Positions 2,372-57,441 are shown, counted from the stretch's first letter. The stretch: DNA of 64,000 nucleotides from Anaerolineae bacterium (GCA_034432395.1 DAOUBU010000109.1:5509-69508), one strand, 5' to 3'. A program made the numbers and translations. Notes: generated from the letters alone by a model not told the origin.

Positions 2372-4005
2372 GGCGCGAACAGCCGGAACAGTTTGATGGC
2401 CACCTGAAGGTTGATGCGCGTATCCGGGTCGGTCAGATCGACGCCGGTGATGGCGGCGATCCGCTCCAGGCGATAATTGAGCGTGCTGCGGTGGATGCTG
2501 AGCAGCTCCGCCGTGCGTACGCCGCTGCCGCCGGAGTCAACGAAGACCTCCAGCGTGCGGAACAGATCCGCGCCCGGCTCACCGGACAGGCGGCGCAGCA
2601 TCGGGATATATGGGTTGGCGTCCAGCGCCGCGCGCCCGGCGCGGAACAGGGTGTACAGGTAGCCCAGATCGTCGAAGTAAGCGATGCGCGTCTCGGGCTG
2701 GCCCAGCCTGCTGGCGATGAACAGCGCATCGCGCGCCTGAGCGTAGGCGGTGAGCACATGACCGGGGCCGCGCCCGGCGGCGCTGACGCCGATGCGCAGC
2801 GCAGTTTTCGGCTCGACGACCTCAGCCAGCGCGGCGATCAGGCGCGTCAGATCGGCATCGCGGCGCGGATCGGGGCCGGAGGCGCACACGATCACGCACT
2901 GACCGACGAATTCCCCCGCCATGATGCGCCAGCCCTCGCGCGCGGCCAGCCGGTTGACGCGCCGCGTCAGCGCGACGGCGTCCAGCGCAGCGGTTTCGAG
3001 CATCAGCAGCACATGGGGCGCGCTCAGGTTGACGCCGTAGCGCAGCGCCTGATCGGTCAGAGGGGCGGCGCTCTCGCCGATATCGCCCTGCAGCAGGCGC
3101 GTCAGCAGGCCGCCTTTGAGCGAGGCTTCGGCATTCTGGGCGGCCTCCTGATACAGCAGCATGAGCGCGGCGATCGTCGCGCCGCTGTCGATCGCCAGCA
3201 TGTCCAGCGTGGACAGCGGACGTTCCGCCGCGATGATCCACATGTAGCCGTAGATCTCCGCATGGACGATGATCGGGGCCAGGATGCGTTCGAATTCCAG
3301 GCCGACTTCCGGCAGCGGCGGCAGGTGCACCGGGCGCAGTGTGCGCCGGATATCGGCGAACACCCCGCGTCGCTCCAGCTCCGCCAGCAGGCGCGGATCG
3401 GTGCGCTGCTGTTCCTGCGTGTAGCGCCGCGCCTCGTCCACCGGCGCGACGTTGTGGACGGCCAGGCTTTCGAAACGCTCATTTTCGATGCTGACCGACT
3501 GGCCGATCAGCTCGGCGAGCTGCCGGGCGAGCTGCGGCAGGCCGCCGCCCTCCAGCACCAGGCGCGTCAGCGTCTGGTTGATGTGCAGCACCCGCTCGAT
3601 GATCGCCATGTTGGTCTGGCTGATGCGCTGGTTGACGGCGCGGGCGATATCGACGAAGCGCGCCTGATACGGGATCTCGATCAGCGGGAAGCCGCAGGCG
3701 TCCGCCTCGGCGCGCATGTGTTCGGGGGCGGCGTGGATGTAGCTGCCCACGGCCAGCGCCAGCGCCGCCACCCCTTTGTCCGCCATCTGACGGACATAGG
3801 TGCGCTGCCCGTCCACCGACTGGGGCAGGTTGAGCGCGGTCGTCAGCACCAGTTCGCCGCCGTTGAGCCACAGCGGGGCGTCTGGAACCGGGCTGACGTG
3901 CACCCAGGCGACCGGGCGGTCGATGCCCGCCGCCCCGGCCACCACGCGCGCCCCGACGAGTTCCTGCATCCGTAAGACTTCGGCCACGGTCGGCACGGCG
4001 TTCAA
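2368..4005 (-). CDS. PucR-family transcriptional regulator
   Basis: 545-aa ORF. The N-terminal segment AGAAGIDRPVAWVHVSPVPDAPLWLNGGELVLTT is PurC-like. The C-terminal HTH LLSIHRSTLNYRLERIAAITGVDL is typical of PucR C-terminal domains. Its TTG start overlaps the stop of the upstream phosphatase gene (TTGA at 4002-4005). Confidence 0.85.
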   Translation of the reverse strand: MNAVPTVAEVLRMQELVGARVVAGAAGIDRPVAWVHVSPVPDAPLWLNGGELVLTTALNLPQSVDGQRTYVRQMADKGVAALALAVGSYIHAAPEHMRAEADACGFPLIEIPYQARFVDIARAVNQRISQTNMAIIERVLHINQTLTRLVLEGGGLPQLARQLAELIGQSVSIENERFESLAVHNVAPVDEARRYTQEQQRTDPRLLAELERRGVFADIRRTLRPVHLPPLPEVGLEFERILAPIIVHAEIYGYMWIIAAERPLSTLDMLAIDSGATIAALMLLYQEAAQNAEASLKGGLLTRLLQGDIGESAAPLTDQALRYGVNLSAPHVLLMLETAALDAVALTRRVNRLAAREGWRIMAGEFVGQCVIVCASGPDPRRDADLTRLIAALAEVVEPKTALRIGVSAAGRGPGHVLTAYAQARDALFIASRLGQPETRIAYFDDLGYLYTLFRAGRAALDANPYIPMLRRLSGEPGADLFRTLEVFVDSGGSGVRTAELLSIHRSTLNYRLERIAAITGVDLTDPDTRINLQVAIKLFRLFAP

Positions 4006-6073: not shown

Positions 6074-7626
6074 TCAGCACTCACCCCCAGGATGCGCACG
6101 TAAATCACGGTGAAGACCAGGATGATGACGAAGATGACCACGCCGATGGCGGAGGCCAGGCCCAGCTCCTGATCGAGGATCAGCGTCCGGTAGTTGAACG
6201 TCGCCAGCGACAGGCGGGTGTTCTCCAGCAGCACCTGGAAGACGTCGAAGACGCGCACCGCATCCAGCGTGCGGAAGACCAGCGCCACGGCGATGGCCGG
6301 GCGCAGCAGCGGCAGCGTGATCGAGAAGAACTGGCGCACTTTGCTCGCGCCGTCCACGTCCGCGGCCTCGTACAGATCGCCGGAGATCACCTGCAGGCCG
6401 GCCAGCAGGATGAGCGCCATGAACGGGGTGGTCTTCCAGACATCGACGAAGATCAGCGCCGGGATCTGCAGATGGGAAGCCGCCAGCCATGCCTGCGGCT
6501 GATTGACGATCCCCGTCAGCATCAGGAAACGGTTGATGACGCCGGACGAATCCGGGCGCAGCATGACCTCCCACAGGCGGGCCGAGACCACTGTCGGGAT
6601 GGCCCAGGGGATGAGCATGGCGGCGCGCATCAGGCCGCGGCCTTTGAATTTGGAGTTGATGACCATGGCGATGAACAGGCCCAGGATCAGCTCCAGCGTG
6701 ACGGAAACGACCGTGAAGACGAGCGTGTTGCTGAACGAATTGACGAAATCGATGCCGGTCGCCCCGCGTGCGCTGAAGATCCAGCGCGTGTCGCCGAGGG
6801 TGATGCCGGTGGCCTCGCGGAAGCGGAAATCAGTGTAGCCCTGATCGAGGACGTCGCGCGGGCGGGGGAAGACAGGCGTCCCGTCGGCATTCGTCTGGCA
6901 GGCGCCGCTCTCGTCGCGGCTGCATTCCAGCCGGTCGATGCGGAAGCTGAGCAACTGTGAGTAATTGTCGAAGCCGACGTACTCCGCCGGGCGGTTGTCG
7001 GCGAAGCGATCGTTGGTCAGGCTGGCGACGAACGTCTTCTCCAGCGGGCGCAGCGCCACGATGATCATGATCGCGATGGTGGGCAGCAGCAGATTCCACG
7101 CCGAGCGCGCGCTGGCCTCCGTCAGCGTTTCGACGCCGCGGAACAGGTTCAGGCTGCGCCCGAGCCAGCCATACGCCGCGCCGACCAGAGCCGCGGCGGC
7201 CAGCCAGGGCAGCGCGTTCTGAACGCCGCTGCCGGGCGTTCCTGCAGGGCCAGCCGATCCCGCGCTGAAACCCTGCACGGCCATGACCAGCGCGGCGATC
7301 GTCAGCCAGAGCAGGATCTGGCGCGCCCAGTTGGCCGCGCGCACGTCGCGCTGGAAGATGCGGACGCCGAGCAGCGCGAGGTAGATGCCGGCCCCGGCGA
7401 TCAGGACGGGCAGGATGATGCCGTAGGTATTGAGGAAGCGCAGCAGCGTATCGCCGCTGCGCTCTTCCGGCGCAGCGGTATTGATGACGCCGGCGATATT
7501 GCTCACCACAAGTGTGAAAGCCGCCGCGGCCAGCGCGAGGAAGAACAGGCCCAGCCCGTATACGCCGATCGCGCCCACGCCATCACCCGCTGCTGGCCGT
7601 CTGGCCGGGGTTTGCGAGAGTGCCAT
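6070..7626 (-). CDS. Carbohydrate ABC transporter permease (MalF-like, long form)
   Basis: 518-aa ORF. The C-terminal half carries GDLYEAADVDGASKVRQFFSITLPLL (EAA loop). There are extra N-terminal TM helices and a large extracytoplasmic loop, as in MalF. Confidence 0.88.
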   Translation of the reverse strand: MALSQTPARRPAAGDGVGAIGVYGLGLFFLALAAAAFTLVVSNIAGVINTAAPEERSGDTLLRFLNTYGIILPVLIAGAGIYLALLGVRIFQRDVRAANWARQILLWLTIAALVMAVQGFSAGSAGPAGTPGSGVQNALPWLAAAALVGAAYGWLGRSLNLFRGVETLTEASARSAWNLLLPTIAIMIIVALRPLEKTFVASLTNDRFADNRPAEYVGFDNYSQLLSFRIDRLECSRDESGACQTNADGTPVFPRPRDVLDQGYTDFRFREATGITLGDTRWIFSARGATGIDFVNSFSNTLVFTVVSVTLELILGLFIAMVINSKFKGRGLMRAAMLIPWAIPTVVSARLWEVMLRPDSSGVINRFLMLTGIVNQPQAWLAASHLQIPALIFVDVWKTTPFMALILLAGLQVISGDLYEAADVDGASKVRQFFSITLPLLRPAIAVALVFRTLDAVRVFDVFQVLLENTRLSLATFNYRTLILDQELGLASAIGVVIFVIILVFTVIYVRILGVSAE

Positions 7627-7739
7627 AGTCTATACCTCTGTCAAAACAGCAGTTCCAAATAAAGGCAGGGGCGCAGCCTGCGACGCGCCCCTGCCTGAAG
7701 ACAACCGTCTGTGAAACCGGTGGGTTCGCTCAGACAGGC

Positions 7740-9044
7740 TTACCTGTTGAGGATCTCATCCACCAGATCCTGCAGATCCACTTCCATATCTTCCACGGCG
7801 GTGCGCGCATCGACCTCGCCGGTCAGGACGCTGTGGACGCCGCTGAAGAAGATCTGCGAGGCCGTGTTGTACCGGTCAGCGGTGAAGCCGGACGGGCGCG
7901 CCACCGCCGTGGCCAGGATCGGCCCCATGCGGCTGAACAGCGGATTGGCCTCGATCAGGGCCGGATCTTCGTACAGCGCCGGGATGGTCGGGTTCGTGCC
8001 CTGCGGGCTGAGCGCACGGATGAGCTGTTCGTCATACGACGCCATGAACGCGGCGACGCTGGCGGCAGCCGCCGGATTCTCCGAGTAGGCGCTGACGGCG
8101 AGCTGCCAGCCGCCCAGGCAGGCGGCGGCGGTCACCGCACCGCGCGGCAGCGGGGCGTAATCGAACAGGCCGGCCACGGCGCTGCCTTCGCTGTTGCCCA
8201 GACCGTAGGCATACGGCCAGTTGCGCATGAAGGCGGCGTTGCCCGCCTGCCAGACCGCGCGCGACTCTTCTTCGCCGAACGTGGTGACGGCTTCGGGGCT
8301 GATCGTGCCGACCCAGCCGGCGGCGCGCTCCAGCGCGGCGACGAACGCATCGTTGTTGACGTTGACTTCGCCTTCAGGGGTGATGAAGGTCTGCCCGGTC
8401 TCGGCCACCAGCCACTCGTGCGCATCGCAGGTCAGGCCTTCGTAGCTGTTGCCCTGCCAGACATAGCCGTAGAACTCGCTGTTGCCCTCAGCGCGCTCGC
8501 CTTCCTGGATGATGGCGGCGGCTTCGGTCAGTTCGTCCCAGGTCGTCGGCACTTCCAGACCGTATTTCTCCAGCAGGTCGGTGCGGTAGTACAGACCGGC
8601 GGCGTCGGTGAACCAGGGGATGGCGACCAGGCGGCCGTCGATCGTCTGGCCTTCGACCATGGCCGGGAAGAACTGCGACACGTATTCCTCATCGACATAA
8701 TCGTACATATCGACGACGTGCGGAGCGATGATACCGGCCCAGATCACGTCCACCTGATAGATATCGACCACATCGCTGCGCGCTTCCCAGAACTGCTGGT
8801 ACAGGCCGAGGCGATCGGTGGTCAGGTCGGGGGTCTCCAGCAGCGTGATCGAGATGTTCGGGCACATCGCCATGTAGCGATCCGCCTGTTCGCTGACGAC
8901 TTCGTATTCGACGCCGACGGCCCCGGCAGCGATCGTGATTTCGGCTTCACCCTCCGGGCAGGCCATGCCGTCCTGCGCGCTGACGGTCGCAAAGGCGCCC
9001 AGAATCAGCGCGAGCACGAGAGCAGCACTCAAAAACTTCCGCAT
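7740..9044 (-). CDS. Extracellular sugar-binding protein of the CUT1 ABC importer
   Basis: 434 aa with signal peptide MRKFLSAALVLALILGAFATVSAQD. Acidic, Trp/Tyr-rich solute-binding-protein composition. It heads the two permease genes. No ATPase gene is in this operon, as is common for CUT1 systems. Confidence 0.85.
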   Translation of the reverse strand: MRKFLSAALVLALILGAFATVSAQDGMACPEGEAEITIAAGAVGVEYEVVSEQADRYMAMCPNISITLLETPDLTTDRLGLYQQFWEARSDVVDIYQVDVIWAGIIAPHVVDMYDYVDEEYVSQFFPAMVEGQTIDGRLVAIPWFTDAAGLYYRTDLLEKYGLEVPTTWDELTEAAAIIQEGERAEGNSEFYGYVWQGNSYEGLTCDAHEWLVAETGQTFITPEGEVNVNNDAFVAALERAAGWVGTISPEAVTTFGEEESRAVWQAGNAAFMRNWPYAYGLGNSEGSAVAGLFDYAPLPRGAVTAAACLGGWQLAVSAYSENPAAAASVAAFMASYDEQLIRALSPQGTNPTIPALYEDPALIEANPLFSRMGPILATAVARPSGFTADRYNTASQIFFSGVHSVLTGEVDARTAVEDMEVDLQDLVDEILNR

Positions 9045-48826: not shown

Positions 48827-49519
48827 CTAGTTCCCTATCCGGAACAGGCTGAGCGTCGCGCCGAAGGTGAGCACATCGCCATCGCGCAGCGCCCGGCCTT
48901 TCTCGGTGACCGGCGTGCCGTTGACGAACGTGCCGTTGGCGCTGCCCAGATCGCTGAGCACCCAGGTCCCGTCGATCAGCTCGAGCCGGGCATGCGGGCG
49001 TGAGACCGATGGATCCTGCAGCGAGATCTCCCAATCGGCTTTGCTGGTCGCCCGGCCGATCGTGACGCGCGCCGTGAGCAGCGGGATGATGTTGCCCTCC
49101 TGCGGGCCGTTGGTGATCAGCAGGTGCGCCCGCCCGGTCGGCGACGTCGCGGTGATCTGCGTGCGCTGTTCACCCGTCCCGGTGCTGACGGCGGCATCCG
49201 GGGTGTAGGCTTCAAAGCGCAGCTCCGGCACGTACAGGCGGATGACGTCGCCTGCCGTCAGCGGATACGGCTCGGTGATGCGCTGGTCGTTGACGTAGAC
49301 GCCGTTGACGCTGCCCAGATCGGTGATCATGAAGACGCCGTCGCGGTAGTTGATGACCGCGTGCTGCCGCGAGACATGCTGCTCGCGGATCGAGATATCG
49401 CACGTCTCCAGGCGTCCGATGGTGACGGTTGCGCCTTCAGCCAGCAGAAACTCGTAGGTTGCGCCGCTGGTCGGATCGTCCCACGTCACTCTGGCCAGAT
49501 ACTGCGGTTCTGTGTTCAT
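48827..49519 (-). CDS. Protein with two FHA domains
   Basis: Two units: VTIGRLETCDISIREQHVSRQHAVINYRDGVFMITDLGSVNGVYVND and VTIGRATSKADWEISLQDPSVSRPHARLELIDGTWVLSDLGSANGTFVNG. Confidence 0.88.
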   Translation of the reverse strand: MNTEPQYLARVTWDDPTSGATYEFLLAEGATVTIGRLETCDISIREQHVSRQHAVINYRDGVFMITDLGSVNGVYVNDQRITEPYPLTAGDVIRLYVPELRFEAYTPDAAVSTGTGEQRTQITATSPTGRAHLLITNGPQEGNIIPLLTARVTIGRATSKADWEISLQDPSVSRPHARLELIDGTWVLSDLGSANGTFVNGTPVTEKGRALRDGDVLTFGATLSLFRIGN

Positions 49520-50562: not shown

Positions 50563-51294
50563 TCACAGACTGACTTCACCGAGGTCGAAGGCGGGGCCGT
50601 CGGCGCAGGCCAGCATGTACGCGCCGCCGCGCCCTTTGACCATGCAGGCGGAGCAGGCCCCTACCCCGCAGGGCAGCGGCGGGCGGAAGACGCCGAACAG
50701 ATAATTCGACGGCACGTCCGCGCGCAGCGACCTGAACAGCTCCCAGATGCGGCTGAACTGCGCCAGTTCATCCAGCGGGTTGACGACGGCGAACACCTGA
50801 TCGGCCCAGCCGACTGTGGTGACGCGGTTGGGGAAATTGAGATCGGCATCGCCGCGCACGATCTCGACTTCCGGGGCCAGATGTTCGGTGCTGTAATCCG
50901 CCGCCGATCCCAGCAGCACCAGGGTGACGCTGCTCTTCTGATTCAGCAGATGCGAGATGGTGAACAGCAGGGGTGTCGGGCTGGTATCGAGGGCCAGCAG
51001 CAGGGCGGCGCGCAGCGTGCGGCGGAAGCGGAACGGTTTGCCGACCGCGCCGATGACATCGACCGTCGTGCCCGGTTCGTAGCGTTCGCGCAGCGGGCGT
51101 TCGATGACGATCGACTGTTTGGCGGCGCTGACCGGCCACCAGACTTCGCGCATCGGCGCCGGGGCGGGGCGCAGCGCCAGCAGCGTCTGGCCCGGCTTGA
51201 TCTGCCCCAGGGAGGGATCGACCGTCAGCGCGAGATGCTGATGCGTCGCGCTCACCTGTTTCACTCGTTCGATTACCGCCTGTGTCTGTCGCAT
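50563..51294 (-). CDS. PyrK-like (DHOD electron-transfer subunit-like) protein retaining the 2Fe-2S cysteine cluster
   Basis: C-terminal PCGVGACSACMV....LACADGPAFDL equals the PyrK-type CxxGxCxxC...C cluster. The flavin motif position reads WWPVS instead of R-P-x-S. The GGGxG nucleotide loop position reads ALDTSPTP. Confidence 0.6.
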   Translation of the reverse strand: MRQTQAVIERVKQVSATHQHLALTVDPSLGQIKPGQTLLALRPAPAPMREVWWPVSAAKQSIVIERPLRERYEPGTTVDVIGAVGKPFRFRRTLRAALLLALDTSPTPLLFTISHLLNQKSSVTLVLLGSAADYSTEHLAPEVEIVRGDADLNFPNRVTTVGWADQVFAVVNPLDELAQFSRIWELFRSLRADVPSNYLFGVFRPPLPCGVGACSACMVKGRGGAYMLACADGPAFDLGEVSL

Positions 51295-51534
51295 GATCCT
51301 GCTGCTGCACCGGTTCAGACTGACACTATCTTACAGCCCGTCGGCGTCGGACGGCAATAGGCGCGGGGCCAGCGCGGTCAAATAGTCAGATCATCGATGA
51401 GACCGGGGCCGCACGCCGGGCGCTGCGCCCCGACAGGGAATTTCGCTCGACAGCGACATCTGCGACTCTGCGGCGTGGCCTGCGTATAGTGAGTCGATAA
51501 AGATCACACTTGCAGACGCCGGGAGTCGTCATCC

Positions 51535-52263
51535 ATGTCCAGCCCATCCCTGCTTGAGCGCCTGTTCATCGCGGTCTTCGGCACTGCCGGGCGCAATTTC
51601 GTCACCCGCGTGACCGACTCGGTCAGCCAGGCTTCCAACCGGTTGAGCGATTTCGTCTACGTGCGCATGTTCGGCCTACCGTTCATCGTCCTGGGGGCGC
51701 GCCAGACCGGCAAGACTACGCTGATCGAGTGGCTGCGCCGCAATGTCACCGCGCTGGGCGAGTTCAACCCGGCCCCCACCGCGCCGGGCGGCGATCCGGT
51801 CGGGTCGTTCAACGCGCACATCGGCGATGAGCGGATACGCCTCAAACCGACGCGCGATGTCGGCGGGGAATACAGCATGTGGGAGACGGACTGGACGGAA
51901 CTGTTCCGCGAGACCACGCCGCGCGGCCTGATCTTCCTGATCGATCACACCGATGTGCTGACGCACAAGGACGCGCTCAATTTCGTCCTCAACCTGATCG
52001 AGGAAGAGGAAGCCGCGCGCCGCAACCTGCGCTCCTTCCTGCTGCTGGTCAACAAATCCGATCTGTGGCAGGCGGGGATGCCGCTCGATAAGCTGATGCT
52101 GCCCTACAGCAACGAGATCAAACGGCTCAACAATCAGGCGGCGCGTCTGGGTTACCGGGTCAAGATCCAGTCCGTCAGCGTCATCAATGGGACGGGCGTC
52201 GATGATGCCATGCGCGCTTTCTTCAATACGATCCGCCCGCTGCCCAGGCCGGGCGTCAGCTAG
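51535..52263 (+). CDS. Small Ras/Arf-like P-loop GTPase with about 45-aa N-terminal extension
   Basis: G1 GARQTGKT, G3 DVGGE, G4 NKSD (LLLVNKSDLW), candidate G5 SVSVINGTG. GGGAG SD upstream. 242 aa. Confidence 0.75.
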   Translation: MSSPSLLERLFIAVFGTAGRNFVTRVTDSVSQASNRLSDFVYVRMFGLPFIVLGARQTGKTTLIEWLRRNVTALGEFNPAPTAPGGDPVGSFNAHIGDERIRLKPTRDVGGEYSMWETDWTELFRETTPRGLIFLIDHTDVLTHKDALNFVLNLIEEEEAARRNLRSFLLLVNKSDLWQAGMPLDKLMLPYSNEIKRLNNQAARLGYRVKIQSVSVINGTGVDDAMRAFFNTIRPLPRPGVS

Positions 52264-52291
52264 CAGCAGGCGCACTGGGAAGGGCGCATCC

Positions 52292-52984
52292 GTGATCACG
52301 CTGACGCTGGACTACGTTCTGACCGGGCAGCGGCGCGGCTACACCCTGTCGCCCGCTGACGCCGTGCCGTCCGATATCTACCGGGCGATCTGGCGGGGGG
52401 CGCTGCCGCGCGGGCAGGGGTGGGATGCGCCCGCTTTTATCGGCGCGCGCGCGCTCAAATCATTCCCGATCGATGCGCGCACTGCGGTCATGAGCGCGGT
52501 CACGATCAGCGATCGACGCGACGAACTGGGGCGGGGCGGCATCAAACAAGCGCTGATCCACTACGGCACGCATGACGAGATCCAGGGCGCGCTGCGCGCC
52601 CGGCTGGAGGCGCTGCCTGCGTCGGTCGTCCACCGCGCCGAGGCTGCGCTGGCCTCGCGCGCCTGGGCGCTGCTGTTCAAACGCCACTGGGAGCAGACGC
52701 GCGGCCTCAAACCGCAGACCGTGCTCGTTTTTCCCTACGATCCGGCGCGCTGGCTGTTCATCGAGGCGTGCCTGCTGCTGCTGGCGACGCGCGCCACGCT
52801 GCTGACCAACCTGATCGAGCTGTCGCCGACCGTCAACCCGTTTGCCGATAAACTGCTGTCGTTCACCACGCTGGCGCTTGACCCGCGCGATGAAGCGCGG
52901 CTGGTGGCTGTGCCTACCGGCGCTCCGGCGCTGGCGGGCGTGCCGCATATCGATCTCTCGTCTGCTCAGGGGGTGCCGCTATGA
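52292..52984 (+). CDS. Hypothetical soluble protein, GTPase-associated by position
   Basis: GTG at 52292, preceded by a GGAAGGG SD; the upstream part of ORF 52187.. overlaps the GTPase gene. About 230 aa with no TM helix and no motif I recognise. Its stop overlaps the next start (ATGA at 52981-52984). Confidence 0.6.
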   Translation: MITLTLDYVLTGQRRGYTLSPADAVPSDIYRAIWRGALPRGQGWDAPAFIGARALKSFPIDARTAVMSAVTISDRRDELGRGGIKQALIHYGTHDEIQGALRARLEALPASVVHRAEAALASRAWALLFKRHWEQTRGLKPQTVLVFPYDPARWLFIEACLLLLATRATLLTNLIELSPTVNPFADKLLSFTTLALDPRDEARLVAVPTGAPALAGVPHIDLSSAQGVPL

Positions 52985-53472
52985 ACGTTTCCTCGCTTGC
53001 CAATCTGACCGACGCGCAGCGGGCCGAACTGCGCCGCCGCGTCACCGAACTGGTCGCCCGGCATCGCGCGCGGGAACACCGCCGCGCCTTTCTCTTCTCG
53101 CTGCTGACCAGCGTCGTCCTCACCGGGCTGGGCTATGGGATCCCGATGACCATCCCCGGCGCGATAGAGGCGATCTGGGCCGCAGAAGCCGGTTGGATGG
53201 TGCTGGTCTTCCCGGCTGCCGCCATCGTCATGAATCTGATCTATCATGGTTTCAGCCTGTTGAATGACACGCAGGCCAGCGAGGAACAGCTTCGCGGGAT
53301 CTACACCGGCCAGGCGCTGAGTGCCCTGTTGATGGCGGACGATGCTGTGGCGGTCAAACCCAAGCGCGACGAGGCGCGTTACGCGCTGACGGATGACGGC
53401 GAACTGCTCGCCGAGGCCGATGTGGATGATGGGCTGAATGCGGGCGAGGCGGCGCGGCGGATGCAGCGCTAG
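52981..53472 (+). CDS. Small membrane protein, paralog A (Arg-rich N-helix, 2-3 TM helices, acidic tail)
   Basis: 163 aa. LTDAQRAELRRRVTELVARHR, then hydrophobic helices, then EEQLRGIYTGQALSALLMADD and KPKRDEARYALTDDGELL. Confidence 0.65.
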   Translation: MNVSSLANLTDAQRAELRRRVTELVARHRAREHRRAFLFSLLTSVVLTGLGYGIPMTIPGAIEAIWAAEAGWMVLVFPAAAIVMNLIYHGFSLLNDTQASEEQLRGIYTGQALSALLMADDAVAVKPKRDEARYALTDDGELLAEADVDDGLNAGEAARRMQR

Positions 53473-53508
53473 CGCTAGCCCCGGATAACCGGAACAGGGG
53501 GGAGCACT

Positions 53509-53979
53509 GTGAGCTTCAATGCGTTCATCGGATCGAATCTGTCTCCGGAAAAGCGAGCGGAGCTGCGCCAGCGCGTCAACGCGCGCGTCGAACAGCAGCT
53601 CCGGCGCAGCGAAGTCAGCACGCTGATCGCCTCGATCATCAGCAGCGCGGTGCTGATCGCCCTCGGCATCGGCCTGCCTGGCACCGGTGGCACCCTGATC
53701 CTGCCATTTTTCATGGGGATCGCGATCCTGATCAACCTGCTGCTGCATTCGATGACGGTCAGGCTGCGCAGCCGGGATCATGTCGAACGGCTGCGCGGGC
53801 AGATCGCACGGCAGGTGCTCAACGCCATGCTGACGGCTGACGTGCTGGACGAGGACGCCGCCGGCAAGCAGAAGCGCGACGAGCGGATCTACCGTCTGAG
53901 CGATGATGGCGAGATCATCGACGGCGATGAGGACGAGAACGATACCTACACGGGCGGCAGCCTGGCGATGCTCTCGTGA
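53509..53979 (+). CDS. Small membrane protein, paralog B
   Basis: GTG start after a GGGGGAG SD. 156 aa. LSPEKRAELRQRVNARVEQQLRR, hydrophobic helices, VERLRGQIARQVLNAMLTAD and KQKRDERIYRLSDDGEII. The architecture is collinear with paralog A. Confidence 0.65.
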   Translation: MSFNAFIGSNLSPEKRAELRQRVNARVEQQLRRSEVSTLIASIISSAVLIALGIGLPGTGGTLILPFFMGIAILINLLLHSMTVRLRSRDHVERLRGQIARQVLNAMLTADVLDEDAAGKQKRDERIYRLSDDGEIIDGDEDENDTYTGGSLAMLS

Positions 53980-54084
53980 AGCGTTCGCCCCGGCGGCGCA
54001 GCGTGCTTCGTGATCAAGAGCGATATCCGGATCGGCGGAACGACCTAAATCGCAGACAACTGATGCTGTTCCTTGAGGCCAATC

Positions 54085-56037
54085 ATGTGCAAACGAGCCG
54101 GAATACGCGGGTCGATCCTGATCGTTTTCATCCTGTTCATCCTGCTGAGCGCGATATCGTCCGCCGCCCAGGACAACCGCAGCGTCACGGTGCAGCGCTG
54201 GGACGTCACCCTGACTGATTTCGATCTCAGCCGCAACCAATTTCGCGTCACCGAAGAACAGGACGTCGTCTTCACCGGGACGTTTGAACGGGGGACGCGC
54301 CGCATCCCGCTGACCCATCTGGACGATATCACCGCGATCCGGGTCAGCGTGGATGGAACCGTCCTGCCGCTGGACTGCGCGCGCAGCGCCGGCGCGGTCT
54401 GCGTGACGGACGAAAACGGCGAACGCCTGATCCGCTACGCTTTCCCCGCGCCGGTGCGCGACAGCACGGTCAGGGTCGTCATCGAGTACACCGTCAGCGG
54501 CGCGCTGCGCATCGACCCTGGCGGCGATCAGCTCCGCTGGCGGGCCGTGCCCGAACAGCACAGCTTCCCGATCCGCAGCGCTTCGATCGCGGTCATCCTG
54601 CCGGAGGCGCTTGCGCCGCGTCCGCAGATCGATCCGGTGGAGACGGCGGGCGTCCCGGCGGATATCCGCATCAGCGGGTCGATCATCCGCGCACAGGCGC
54701 TGCGCCCGATCGCACCGGATGAGCCGCTCAGTATCCGCGTTCAGTTCCCCCATACGGCTGGCGCGCGCATCCCCGCCTGGCAGGCCGATCAGGCGGCGCC
54801 GGATGAAGCCGATAACCGGCTGGCGCTGATCAACGTGGGAGCGCTGGCGCTGGCGCTGCTGATCGGCGTGGGCGGCAGTCTGTTCTGGTTCGTGCGCTGG
54901 CGGGTGCGCCGTGGGAGCGAGCCGCGGCCGGTCGTCCCGCAGTATCTGACCGAGCCGCCCGGCGATCTGCCCCCGGCTTTTGCCGCTGTTCTGGTGCAGG
55001 ACAGCTCCAGCATCACCGATCCGATCGTGCTGGGGACGGTGCTCGATCTGGCCCGGAAAGGCTGTATCAGTCTCGCTGAAATCGAGACCGGCGAGGGCAA
55101 GACGCTGGAGCTGATCCAGCGCCAGATGGAACAACCCGGGCTGCTGCCCCATGAGCGCAGTCTGCTGGAAAGCCTGTTTCGCGGCCATGAACGGCGGATG
55201 CTGTCCGATCTGCGCGCGATGGGCCTCACACGAGCGGACAGTGACTGGCAAAAGCAGATCGTGACAGCGATGACCGGGCGCGGGCTGATCGATCTCAGGA
55301 TCGCCGCGGGCCGAAAGAGACAGGTCGTCTCGGCGAGTGTGCTGGCCGCGCTGGCTTTTGGGGTGGCGCTCTTGTGGATTGTTTCGGTTCCCACACCGCT
55401 GCGCGGCGCGGGCGTCCTCATCGCACTGGCGCTGCTGATGAACGCGGGGGCGCTGTGGCTGTTCGCGCCGCCGCGCAGCGTCGTCACCCCGAAAGGGCGC
55501 GAAGAACAGGCGAAGTGGCGGGCTTTCAAAACGGATCTCGAACGCCGCATCGATCCCCGAAACGGGCCGGCCATGCCAGCCAGCGATTTCGAGCGCTATC
55601 TGCCGTATACGGTGGCGTTCGGCCTGGCAAAAGGATGGATCGCGCAGTTCAACCACCGCCCCGCCGCGGACGCGCCCGTCCCGGGGACGGGAATTCCAGG
55701 ATGGTACGAGTACGAGCCGCTGCCGCCCGTGATCCTGCTCAACAGAGACAGCCGTTTCCCCTCGACTGAACCCGCCGACATATTCGCCGATCGACCGTTC
55801 GATGACTTCGATGTCGAACCGGATGCCGCCCCCGATTTCGATGCCGCCGAATCGCTGGACTCGCTCAGCGCGGGCCTGAGTACGGCGTTCAACAGCCTGT
55901 CCGACAGCTTCGGCGACATGCTGGACTCGGCGGCGTCGGCGTTCGGCGATCCTGGCGGTTCCGACTCCGGCTGGGGCGGTGGGGGGGACTGGGGGGGCGG
56001 CGGCGACAGCGGCGGTGGCGGTGCGGATTTCTCCTGA
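54085..56037 (+). CDS. DUF2207 domain membrane protein
   Basis: ATG at 54085 (GAGG SD 6 nt upstream). Signal peptide, then an extracytoplasmic beta-rich N-domain (VQRWDVTLTDFDLSRNQFRVTEEQDVVFTGTFERGTRRIPL), several TM helices, and a Gly-rich tail GWGGGGDWGGGGDSGGGGADFS. This matches the DUF2207 layout as I recall it. Confidence 0.7.
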   Translation: MCKRAGIRGSILIVFILFILLSAISSAAQDNRSVTVQRWDVTLTDFDLSRNQFRVTEEQDVVFTGTFERGTRRIPLTHLDDITAIRVSVDGTVLPLDCARSAGAVCVTDENGERLIRYAFPAPVRDSTVRVVIEYTVSGALRIDPGGDQLRWRAVPEQHSFPIRSASIAVILPEALAPRPQIDPVETAGVPADIRISGSIIRAQALRPIAPDEPLSIRVQFPHTAGARIPAWQADQAAPDEADNRLALINVGALALALLIGVGGSLFWFVRWRVRRGSEPRPVVPQYLTEPPGDLPPAFAAVLVQDSSSITDPIVLGTVLDLARKGCISLAEIETGEGKTLELIQRQMEQPGLLPHERSLLESLFRGHERRMLSDLRAMGLTRADSDWQKQIVTAMTGRGLIDLRIAAGRKRQVVSASVLAALAFGVALLWIVSVPTPLRGAGVLIALALLMNAGALWLFAPPRSVVTPKGREEQAKWRAFKTDLERRIDPRNGPAMPASDFERYLPYTVAFGLAKGWIAQFNHRPAADAPVPGTGIPGWYEYEPLPPVILLNRDSRFPSTEPADIFADRPFDDFDVEPDAAPDFDAAESLDSLSAGLSTAFNSLSDSFGDMLDSAASAFGDPGGSDSGWGGGGDWGGGGDSGGGGADFS

Positions 56038-56046
56038 TCCGGGGCG

Positions 56047-57441
56047 TCAGTTCAGGATCTGATACTCGAAGCTGAACGGCCCCATCAGGCCGCTGGCGTC
56101 CTGCGCGGCGATGGCGACCCCGGCGAAGCGGCTGCGGGTGAAGCCGTCCCAGGTGACGGTGTTGGCCGTCACCTCGAAGAAGTTGTCGTACAGAAGCGAG
56201 CCGGGGCGGCGCAGCGCCACGATGTAGCTGCGCGCGTCGGGCGACGGCTGCCAGACCAGCGTCCGCTGGCCCGATCCGTCGTCGCGCAGGCTGATGTTCT
56301 CCGGCGGACGCGGCCCGCCCGCCAGCGCCATCGCACTGGCCAGCACGGTCTGGGTGGCGCGGACGAAATACGATACGCGCAGATTGCCCACCACGTCCTG
56401 ATCGTTGTGGTTGCGGTTCGGGTTCTCCAGCGCCTCGATGAAGCGCACGGCGGGCACGCCGATCTCGCTGAACGACAGGTGATCGCTGTAACGGCCCTCG
56501 CGATCGCCCGCCGGGATCACCTCCAGCGTCATGCCGGGGATGTAGCGCGCGGCGATCAGGTTGAGCGCCCGGGCGAGCTGGCGCGACGGGGCCATGTCGT
56601 CTTCACCGGCGGAATACACGCGCATCCGGTTGTCGATGAGCGACCCGTTCGGCCCGGTGCTGCTGCCGATGATATCCATGTTGAGCATGTAGCTGATCTC
56701 GATATTGTTCGGGCGCAGGTATTCCTCGATCAGGGCGAGGCTGCCCCGGCGCTGAAATTCCTCCGCGCCGAACGCCACGAACATCACCGTGGCCCGCTGC
56801 GGGTACTGGCTCATGATGCGCGCGATCTCGATCAGCGCGGCCACGCCGGAGGCGTTGTCATTGGCCCCCGGCGCGAACGAGACGGCATCGTCGAAAGCGA
56901 CCGTGCGCGAGTCGTAGTGCGCGCCGATCAGGACGATGCCCGCGCCCGTCTCCGAACCGCCGATCACAGCGATGATGTTGCTCTGGGTCGTCTGGATATC
57001 GGCCATCGTCATGCTGAACTCGTGGGGGGGCAGCACGGTCAGCCGCCCGGCGGACTGCGCCCGGATGGCCTCGAACTGACGCTGGACGTAGGCCGCGGCG
57101 GCCCCGACCCCGCGCGCAGGGTCGGTGCGGCTCGAATTGATGTGCCGCGTGTACATATTCTGCAGGTTGGTGACGTGTTCGTACAGCCGGTCGCCCTGCA
57201 CCTGGTTGATGATGTTGACCAGCGCCGTGCCGGTCTGCTGCTGCGGGATGCTGGTGGCGACCAGCGGCAGCTCTTCCGGGGCCAGTGTGGCGTAGCCGAT
57301 GGTGGGCGGCGGCGTGGCGGTGGCGCGCGGCACGATCGTCGGCGGGGCGCTTTCGCTGCTCAGGTTGCAGGCGATCGCAGCCAATCCCAGTGAGGCCAGG
57401 GCGAGCAGGGGAACGAGCAGACGGCGCTTCATGATCGGCAT
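56047..57441 (-). CDS. M28-family metallo-aminopeptidase, probable lipoprotein, with C-terminal beta-sandwich domain
   Basis: Lipobox-like LGLAAIAC. Carries GAHYDS, GANDNASGVAAL and FGAEE zinc-ligand motifs. Confidence 0.85.
   Translation of the reverse strand: MPIMKRRLLVPLLALASLGLAAIACNLSSESAPPTIVPRATATPPPTIGYATLAPEELPLVATSIPQQQTGTALVNIINQVQGDRLYEHVTNLQNMYTRHINSSRTDPARGVGAAAAYVQRQFEAIRAQSAGRLTVLPPHEFSMTMADIQTTQSNIIAVIGGSETGAGIVLIGAHYDSRTVAFDDAVSFAPGANDNASGVAALIEIARIMSQYPQRATVMFVAFGAEEFQRRGSLALIEEYLRPNNIEISYMLNMDIIGSSTGPNGSLIDNRMRVYSAGEDDMAPSRQLARALNLIAARYIPGMTLEVIPAGDREGRYSDHLSFSEIGVPAVRFIEALENPNRNHNDQDVVGNLRVSYFVRATQTVLASAMALAGGPRPPENISLRDDGSGQRTLVWQPSPDARSYIVALRRPGSLLYDNFFEVTANTVTWDGFTRSRFAGVAIAAQDASGLMGPFSFEYQILN

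Follow-up and report, generated by a model that had tools for sequence, protein, structure and literature searches.

We found that two adjacent genes, g1 and g2, in a 64,000-nucleotide (nt) stretch of DNA from an Anaerolineae bacterium (GCA_034432395.1, DAOUBU010000109.1:5509-69508; the whole stretch is called the window here) are the conserved core of an undescribed module that pairs an Arf-like GTPase with a partner of predicted longin/DENN/TagF-like fold. We lean towards reading this two-gene module as a GTPase and its regulator, with g2 probably in the role of GTPase-activating protein (GAP) through its residue R81; binding, catalysis, membrane association and cellular output are what we infer from the data below. 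The pair heads a row of five open reading frames (ORFs; g1 to g5) at 51535-56037, which an earlier reading of the sequence alone (the original prediction) had put forward as one candidate membrane system that began with a Ras-like GTPase and ended in a DUF2207 membrane protein. The two core genes are:

51535-52263, plus strand: g1, predicted small GTPase of the Arf/G-alpha clade, 242 amino acids (aa), ATG start; core of the module
52292-52984, plus strand: g2, partner of the GTPase, 230 aa, GTG start after a 28-nt gap from g1; core of the module

The g1 product matched the Pfam Arf family (PF00025) with 35.4 bits (cut-off 22.3) over residues 51-232. All of the G1-G5 nucleotide-binding motifs are present, namely G1 (GARQTGKT, residues 54-61), switch I (PT82), G3 (DVGGE, 108-112), G4 (NKSD, 173-176) and G5 (S215), and, with the guanine-specificity motif NKxD among them, they indicate that g1 binds guanine nucleotide. 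The Pfam match and the motifs GARQTGKT, DVGGE and NKSD bear out the proposal that gene 1 encodes a P-loop protein with a small-GTPase motif set. Across 32 g1 homologs, G54, R56, Q57, G59, K60, T61, P81, T82 and D108 to E112 were invariant, as were W116, T118, D119, W120, N173, K174, D176 and S215. In a BLASTP alignment, g1 was 28% identical to human ARF1 over 138 residues. The catalytic Gln of DVGGQ is not found in g1: an invariant Glu (DVGGE) aligns with Q71 of ARF1, and the same is true of a remote homolog at locus L095 (EDVGGE; see below). The P-loop Arg of GARQTGKT lies at the position of G12 in Ras, as does the corresponding Arg of RagC (GLRRSGKS, sequence verified).

Foldseek comparison of the AlphaFold2 (AF2) model of g1, which has an extra strand before beta1, returned Arl2, RagD, Arf1 and Sar1 as the closest structures, followed by Rab and Ras proteins. 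When the g1 sequence profile was compared with PDB, the best matches were mini-G-alpha, IFT22 and Arf1 (E ~1e-3). Because of these structural neighbors and profile matches, we place g1, as judged from sequence and model, in the Arf/G-alpha clade of small GTPases as a divergent member, and so specify more closely the Ras-superfamily GTPase of the original prediction. GTPases of this type are 50-69% identical across Anaerolineae, and the proteins are named in the databases only as "ADP-ribosylation factor-like", "GTPase domain-containing" or "hypothetical". A database copy identical to g1 (100%) is named Candidatus Flexifilum sp., a genus of the Chloroflexota, Anaerolineae, Aggregatilineales. 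A search of viral contigs found no relative of the GTPase. We also noted a second Arf-family GTPase of 169 aa (L076:9074-9580, minus strand; Pfam Arf E 5.5e-9), which is convergent with a g1 homolog lacking an adjacent g2 and lies ~400 nt downstream of it.

To survey the pair, a profile of g1 homologs was run against one genome per GTDB species. Relatives were detected in 126 species, and the best 80 loci, essentially all of them from metagenome-assembled genomes (MAGs) of Chloroflexota/Anaerolineae, were searched for g2 to g5 by tblastn and by hidden Markov models (HMMs) on ORFs. (Clustering of ORFs gave 76 loci with g2, a looser count than those by tblastn and HMM, and was not used.) We detected g2 downstream of the GTPase on the same strand in 69 of the 80 loci; since three of the 11 negatives end less than 450 nt from the GTPase, this corresponds to 69 of 77 informative loci. 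The gap between g1 and g2 was at most ~330 nt in 64 of the 69. This adjacency is far beyond chance. In the five remaining loci (L009, L010, L022, L046 and L065), g2 lies 0.7-1.9 kb from the GTPase, a separation that implies an inserted gene or element.

The association extends to distant relatives of g2. A profile search of 1.84 billion representative proteins recovered only 90 relatives, and none of the 48 that were scanned has a Pfam domain. Four remote ones (20-26% identity) were looked up, and all of them lie directly after a g1-like GTPase. Three (P0245 at L091, P0290 at L092 and P0275 at L093/L094) start -8 to +15 nt after a match to the g1 profile (E 1e-10 to 1e-18). The fourth (P0268, L095:7367-8747) lies 16 nt after a 205-aa Arf-family GTPase with EDVGGE and IFLIDH motifs (Pfam Arf E 1.8e-14, 54.1 bits) on contig JACRNV010000030, which is binned, according to its record, as a Euryarchaeota archaeon. 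The region around this last pair holds a phage-type integrase, two transposase genes, Fic and a MazE/PIN pair, a context suggesting that the module can move and that Archaea may have it. At L093:3151-7482, a 944-aa protein that has a weak TPR match and carries a g1-like GTPase domain at its C-terminus precedes, by 15 nt, a 493-aa g2-like protein, whose C-terminal half has a hydrophobic (transmembrane) segment and coiled-coil matches. Taken with the same-strand pairs of Anaerolineae, usually less than 330 nt apart, these remote relatives support the earlier suggestion that the GTPase has a dedicated partner in gene 2. Our search of the literature on Arf and longin proteins in Chloroflexota/Anaerolineae turned up no description of the g1-g2 pair and no link between TagF and DENN.

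Several loci depart from this arrangement. In Ca. Flexifilum affinis, g1 and g2 are both kept and are unlinked, with g2 alone on another contig (L090). In the clade of this species, the place after the GTPase is taken not by g2 but by two paralogous membrane proteins of ~190 aa that match PycTM (the Pycsar effector family PF18967) at L033:8709-9865, L031:8789-9925 and L030:1664-2800; two of the proteins score above the gathering cut-off. At three other loci (L001, L002 and L006, ~7006-8687), relatives of g2 with 42-45% identity lie 15 nt after a phytoene/squalene synthase gene, and no GTPase was found within 8 kb. HEAT-repeat genes lie near these three relatives, and a lycopene-cyclase-like gene is nearby in L001 and L002. 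At L092, a repeat-rich gene upstream of the pair (789-1328) looks pentapeptide-repeat-like by eye, with no Pfam match on record, and the pair is followed by a 215-aa gene and then an Nmad3 (nucleotide-modification-associated) gene (3585-3971). Pairs of the Chloroflexota type were also seen on contigs labeled Oceanobacillus sp. or Pleurocapsa sp. (L007, L039 and L044), and these MAGs are likely mis-binned or mislabeled.

The original prediction had seen no recognizable motif in gene 2, in agreement with our searches, in which g2 had no match in Pfam, NCBIfam or PADLOC. Its AF2 model is confident (predicted local distance difference test score, pLDDT, 89.7; predicted TM-score, pTM, 0.87). The N-domain (residues 1-136, pLDDT >90) is modeled as strands 2-9 and 16-20, helix 27-36, strands 53-59, 64-72 and 85-93, and helices 94-107 and 110-120; three helices follow strand 85-93. 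In this predicted structure, the order of the elements, bbabbbaa, is that of longin domains, as distinct from the abbabbba order of Roadblock domains (PMC3747258). The C-domain (residues 140-230) is modeled as a small alpha/beta domain, with two strands of at least three residues, short strand or bridge marks and two helices, where the central domain of a DENN module has a five-strand sheet. In Foldseek searches of PDB with the g2 model, we detected the GEF (guanine nucleotide exchange factor) domain of DENND1B bound to Rab35 (E 0.014, probability 0.85, 256 aligned columns, TMq 0.40), TagF in three entries (probability 0.44-0.85), FNIP2 in the FLCN-FNIP2-Rag-Ragulator complex and a chain of the C9orf72:SMCR8:WDR41-ARF1 complex; nothing was found below E 1e-3. 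As an informal control, a viral structure library gave nothing above probability 0.28. The highest-probability fold matches are nevertheless a coherent set, and the g2 model, that of a soluble protein of two domains, resembles DENN-module and TagF proteins in fold, not in sequence. This predicted longin/DENN/TagF-type fold is one used by GTPase regulators and fits the role that had been proposed for gene 2. Two other kinds of matches were set aside. Among the 48 family members scanned, GAP1-M (E 0.01, in one member) and coiled-coil matches were isolated and weak and were rejected as chance. A phosphopantetheinyl transferase (4qjl, E 0.3-0.4) that recurred in three profile searches of PDB with g2 alignments was judged spurious, with no such enzyme in the fold search.

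The residues of g2 that are conserved cluster in the N-domain, most clearly in the loop D77-E78-x-G80-R81-x-G83-I84, which the model places between beta4 (64-72) and beta5 (85-93). D77, E78, G80, R81, G83 and I84 were invariant in 38 close g2 sequences. All 19 distant members also have R81, and its conservation in the 48-member set is at least 90%, while R40 was not conserved outside the close family. Monomeric GAPs of the DENN class (Avl9, DENND6A/B and DENND11) have been defined by a conserved arginine finger between longin beta4 and beta5 (10.64898/2026.01.05.697756), and R81 of the g2 model occupies this loop position. We also noted a strongly hydrophobic helix at g2 residues 154-172 (52751-52807; WLFIEACLLLLATRATLLT) and, at residues 171-190, a highly conserved segment of low model confidence, TNLIExSPxVNPFAD, which distant relatives have lost or replaced. 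The helix and this segment may form a clade-specific interaction or membrane-contact element.

We favor g2 as a GAP because R81 sits where the Avl9-type DENN GAPs carry their arginine finger. In the mechanism that we propose, g2 would use its longin face to dock onto GTP-bound g1 at the switch regions and would insert the Arg81 of its beta4-beta5 loop as an arginine finger; g2 would thus act as a GAP that resets the g1 switch. The N-terminal 45 residues of g1 include a conserved hydrophobic segment, LxxxFxxVFG, through which g1, like Arf and Sar1, may associate with membranes in a nucleotide-dependent manner. Candidate membrane receptors or effectors in the Flexifilum-like clade would be the small membrane proteins g3 and g4 (described below). 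The P-loop Arg that g1 shares with RagC offers a parallel, since RagC is a substrate of the longin-DENN GAP FLCN-FNIP2. A role for g2 as a GEF or as a platform is our second choice and is less likely than a GAP.

A number of observations weigh against this mechanism. The g1 model is of moderate confidence (pLDDT 67.7), with the switch and interswitch residues 77-115, on which g2 would dock, below 50. The hydrophobic moment of LxxxFxxVFG (0.5-0.6, compared with 0.57 for ARF1) was reached by 39% of shuffled sequences, so that the amphipathicity of this segment is no different from that of shuffles, and AF2 confidence there is also below 50. With Glu in place of the catalytic Gln and an invariant Arg-Gln in the P-loop, g1 could hydrolyze GTP in cis or by dimerization, without a GAP. 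On the side of g2, the scan of 48 family members against Pfam and the three PDB profile searches gave no match to uDENN, DENN, TagF or Roadblock, nor, in the Pfam scan, to dDENN. The C-domain is smaller than the DENN core, and a d-DENN domain is absent, the protein ending at residue 230. The top fold matches are marginal (E 0.014-0.03, TM-scores 0.22-0.40), and PAS-like folds of low probability are mixed among them. Finally, the conserved loop of TagF with D81 and R85 binds a forkhead-associated (FHA) protein, not a GTPase (PMC5995506), though the equivalence of this loop with that of g2 is by D-x3-R spacing only.

The remaining genes of the row, together with the flanks, are:

52981-53472, plus strand: g3, small membrane protein, 163 aa, whose start overlaps the g2 stop (ATGA); clade-specific accessory
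53509-53979, plus strand: g4, paralog of g3, 156 aa, GTG start after a 36-nt gap from g3
54085-56037, plus strand: g5, DUF2207-family membrane protein, 650 aa, ATG start after a 105-nt gap; adjacent gene
51295..51534, no strand: divergent intergenic region of 240 nt between the pyrK-like gene and g1; presumed promoter of the cluster
50563-51294, minus strand: PyrK-like gene, the upstream flank, divergent from g1, with PyrD and a 2xFHA gene behind it on the minus strand
48827-49519, minus strand: protein of 230 aa with two FHA domains, behind pyrK-pyrD
56047-57441, minus strand: M28 peptidase gene, the downstream flank, convergent

ORF calls and a reading of the junctions gave gaps of 28, -4 (ATGA), 36 and 105 nt within 51535-56037, and with the profile matches they reproduced the five-gene same-strand layout, its coordinates, motifs and domains, as first described. 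Purine-rich Shine-Dalgarno-like motifs precede g2, g3, g4 and g5, the one upstream of the g2 start being GGGAAGGG, and g5 has an alternative TTG start at 54073. The 240-nt divergent region presumably holds the promoter of the cluster; a simple scan of it found no sigma-70-like site. Upstream of the pair, ORF clustering found pyrK in 20, pyrD in 18 and the FHA gene in 12 of 81 loci. This recurrence is ordinary synteny, and for the FHA gene too it is probably only that.

The g3 and g4 products are paralogs (34% identity, E 2e-22) with two hydrophobic segments each, at residues 36-54 and 65-83 of g3 and 36-54 and 62-80 of g4, and are the paralogous small membrane proteins that had been recognized from the sequence. 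In g3 we noted an N-terminal QRAELRxRV helix and a C-terminal KxKR...DDGE motif. A homolog search with g3 found only one database protein, 98% identical, while an iterated g3 HMM, run on all retrieved loci, brought in L019 and L020 and no others. Genes of the g3/g4 type thus follow g2 only in the window, in three close relatives (L087, L088 and L089) and in two of the 80 species loci (L019 and L020). The relative with a g2 that is 76% identical (L087) has g1, g2, a g3-like and a g4-like gene before the contig ends. Where g2 is 62% identical (L088), the contig ends after g1, g2 and a g3-like gene. In the closest relative (L089, g2 88% identical), a near-identical ortholog of g4 is the only small membrane gene and is followed by DUF2207. 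A 4-nt overlap couples the g3/g4-type gene translationally to g2, and it is the same in the relatives. A kinship of g3 and g4 with the PycTM-like proteins of Ca. Flexifilum affinis was ruled out by hhalign (probability 0.3%). Confined as they are to a shallow clade, g3 and g4 do not belong to a conserved unit as had been supposed, and they are at most a lineage-specific accessory, added at the level of the clade.

The g5 product has both domains of the DUF2207 family (PF09972, the N-terminal domain, E 3.7e-11; PF20990, DUF2207_C, E 1.2e-31), a signal-like N-terminal hydrophobic segment (residues 10-28), further hydrophobic segments at 242-260, 414-432 and 442-460, and a Gly/Asp-rich tail. The description of gene 5 as a DUF2207-type protein with transmembrane segments and a Gly/Asp tail therefore held. 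The function of the DUF2207 family is poorly known. For one member, S. mutans SMU.243, a stress-tolerance and biofilm phenotype is reported (PMC10457818). In none of the 80 species loci was a DUF2207 gene found at 8 kb or less from the GTPase; the window and the 88%-identical relative L089 are the only cases in which it follows the cluster. DUF2207 is a recently acquired neighbor, and g5 is probably not part of the conserved module.

This distribution bears directly on the idea of a membrane complex encoded by five genes, the DUF2207 protein included, with the GTPase as its switch. The genes share a strand and short gaps, no convincing terminator was seen between them (the promoter and terminator scan being uninformative), and the order g1-g2-g4-DUF2207 recurs in L089. 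However, L089 is nearly the same species, so that the order there reflects shared ancestry and not selection, and g5 has the largest upstream gap (105 nt) as well as its own Shine-Dalgarno-like site. With g5 orthologs co-located in 0 of 80 species representatives, a result that the original prediction itself had said would count against its proposal, the five-gene unit ending in DUF2207 was not sustained, and we regard such a complex as very improbable. A conflict- or defense-type switch, in which the GTPase and g2 would control small membrane effectors (g3/g4 here, PycTM-like proteins elsewhere), has somewhat more in its favor. PycTM-like membrane proteins follow the GTPase in L030, L031 and L033, the paralogous g3 and g4 follow g2 in the window, the L095 pair lies amid integrase, transposase, Fic and MazE/PIN genes, and an Nmad3 gene is near the pair in L092. 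Yet g3 and g4 are unrelated to PycTM by the hhalign comparison, most loci have no membrane gene after g2, relatives are lacking on viral contigs, and PADLOC-DB 2.0 gave no meaningful match (only a weak, P-loop-restricted one for g1 and none for g2 to g5). The 50-69% identity of the GTPase and the pyrK/pyrD housekeeping flanks in 18-20 of 81 loci also fit vertical inheritance better than an arms race, and we consider a defense role improbable.

A further alternative, unlikely but more probable in our view than either of these, is that g2 acts for the GTPase as an effector or adaptor in the manner of TagF. After its recruitment by GTP-bound g1, the conserved N-domain loops of g2 would bind another partner, such as an FHA protein. 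The best fold matches of g2 include TagF structures. The loop by which TagF binds Fha (S79/D81/R85/P88; PMC5995506) has a D-x3-R spacing that matches D77...R81 of g2, and a 2xFHA gene lies three genes upstream in the window and near the pair in 12 loci. That gene, however, is on the opposite strand behind pyrK-pyrD and is syntenic only in the closest relatives (12/81 loci), and g2 has no TagF-family sequence match. Where Pfam annotation had been precomputed, type VI secretion families were absent from the called genes, the 80 GTDB loci not having been scanned for them. The only universally conserved neighbor of g2 is the GTPase itself.

In eukaryotes, small GTPases with longin or roadblock regulators organize membrane traffic, polarity and nutrient signaling, and DENN-type GAPs for Arf GTPases have been recognized only recently. 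MglA/MglB, with its Roadblock domain, is to our knowledge the only well-studied bacterial case. A 2013 survey reported prokaryotes to be without longin domains (PMC3747258). If our reading is correct, the module would suggest an ancestral function for the fold of TagF, a type VI secretion regulator. It would also offer a bacterial data point on the origin of eukaryotic GTPase regulators, and a system of two proteins would be a simple model for dissecting regulation. Filamentous Anaerolineae abound in activated sludge, and the module may be a switch of theirs that has so far gone unstudied. Annotators should not count the adjacent DUF2207 gene in the system.

Among known systems, MglA/MglB is alike in being a two-gene module, with a small GTPase beside a cognate partner of the longin/roadblock class. 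The GTPases differ in that g1 has the Pfam Arf match and retains the Asp of G3 (DVGGE), which MglA is not known to have. The partners differ as well: the predicted N-domain of g2 has the longin and not the Roadblock order, a second alpha/beta domain follows it, one Arg of the g2 loop is invariant, and no match to Robl_LC7 was found for g2. The archaeal ArvA/ArvB/ArvC (vesiculating Arf-like GTPase) operons, alike in layout, also combine a prokaryotic Arf-like GTPase that has an N-terminal helix with putative regulators, encoded directly downstream in >90% of genomes (PMC10927574). ArvB is DUF2073 and ArvC is DUF2072, whereas g2 to g4 match neither, and g1, with DVGGE and IFLIDH, belongs to another subfamily. 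With the DUF2207 family the likeness is confined to g5, which has both domains of the family and is linked to the pair only in the immediate relatives of the window.

The closest parallels of g2 are the longin-DENN GAPs and TagF. The GAP complexes (Avl9-Arf1, FLCN:FNIP2-RagC and C9orf72:SMCR8-Arf1) act on Arf- or Rag-like substrates through a longin domain with a conserved beta4-beta5 Arg. In its model, g2 carries R81 at the position of the conserved Arg of the Avl9-type class, its fold matches include DENND1B, FNIP2 and the C9orf72 complex, and the P-loop Arg is common to g1 and RagC. In contrast to these GAPs, the g2 protein is bacterial and is encoded in an operon with its GTPase, shows no sequence similarity to them, has a much smaller C-domain and no d-DENN, and has no uDENN/DENN/dDENN sequence match (g2 and 47 relatives). 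TagF has an alpha+beta N-domain with conserved loops and an alpha/beta C-domain (10.64898/2025.12.08.692957). Like g2, TagF (DUF2094), an accessory protein of type VI secretion, is a bacterial two-domain protein of ~220-320 aa; it is among the top Foldseek matches of g2, and its D-x3-R motif falls at nearly the same residue numbers. The differences are that g2 has no Pfam match to this family (PF09867/DUF2094) and no type VI secretion context, that its host is a Chloroflexota bacterium, and that it has a GTPase as its conserved partner, something not described for TagF. By sequence, then, the g1/g2 module falls outside MglA/MglB, the DENN GAPs, TagF and ArvA/ArvB/ArvC. A broader view, which we offer only tentatively and hold to be a good deal less probable than the GAP role itself, is that the module, present chiefly in Anaerolineae with scattered copies in other places (one on the contig binned as archaeal), pairs a prokaryotic Arf/G-alpha-like GTPase with a longin arginine-finger GAP. 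Longin-type regulation of GTPases, and possibly Arf-like membrane switching, would then occur in bacteria, and the module would be a counterpart, or even a relative, of the eukaryotic DENN-GAP/Arf and FLCN/Rag systems, with TagF a derived member of the same superfamily of regulators.

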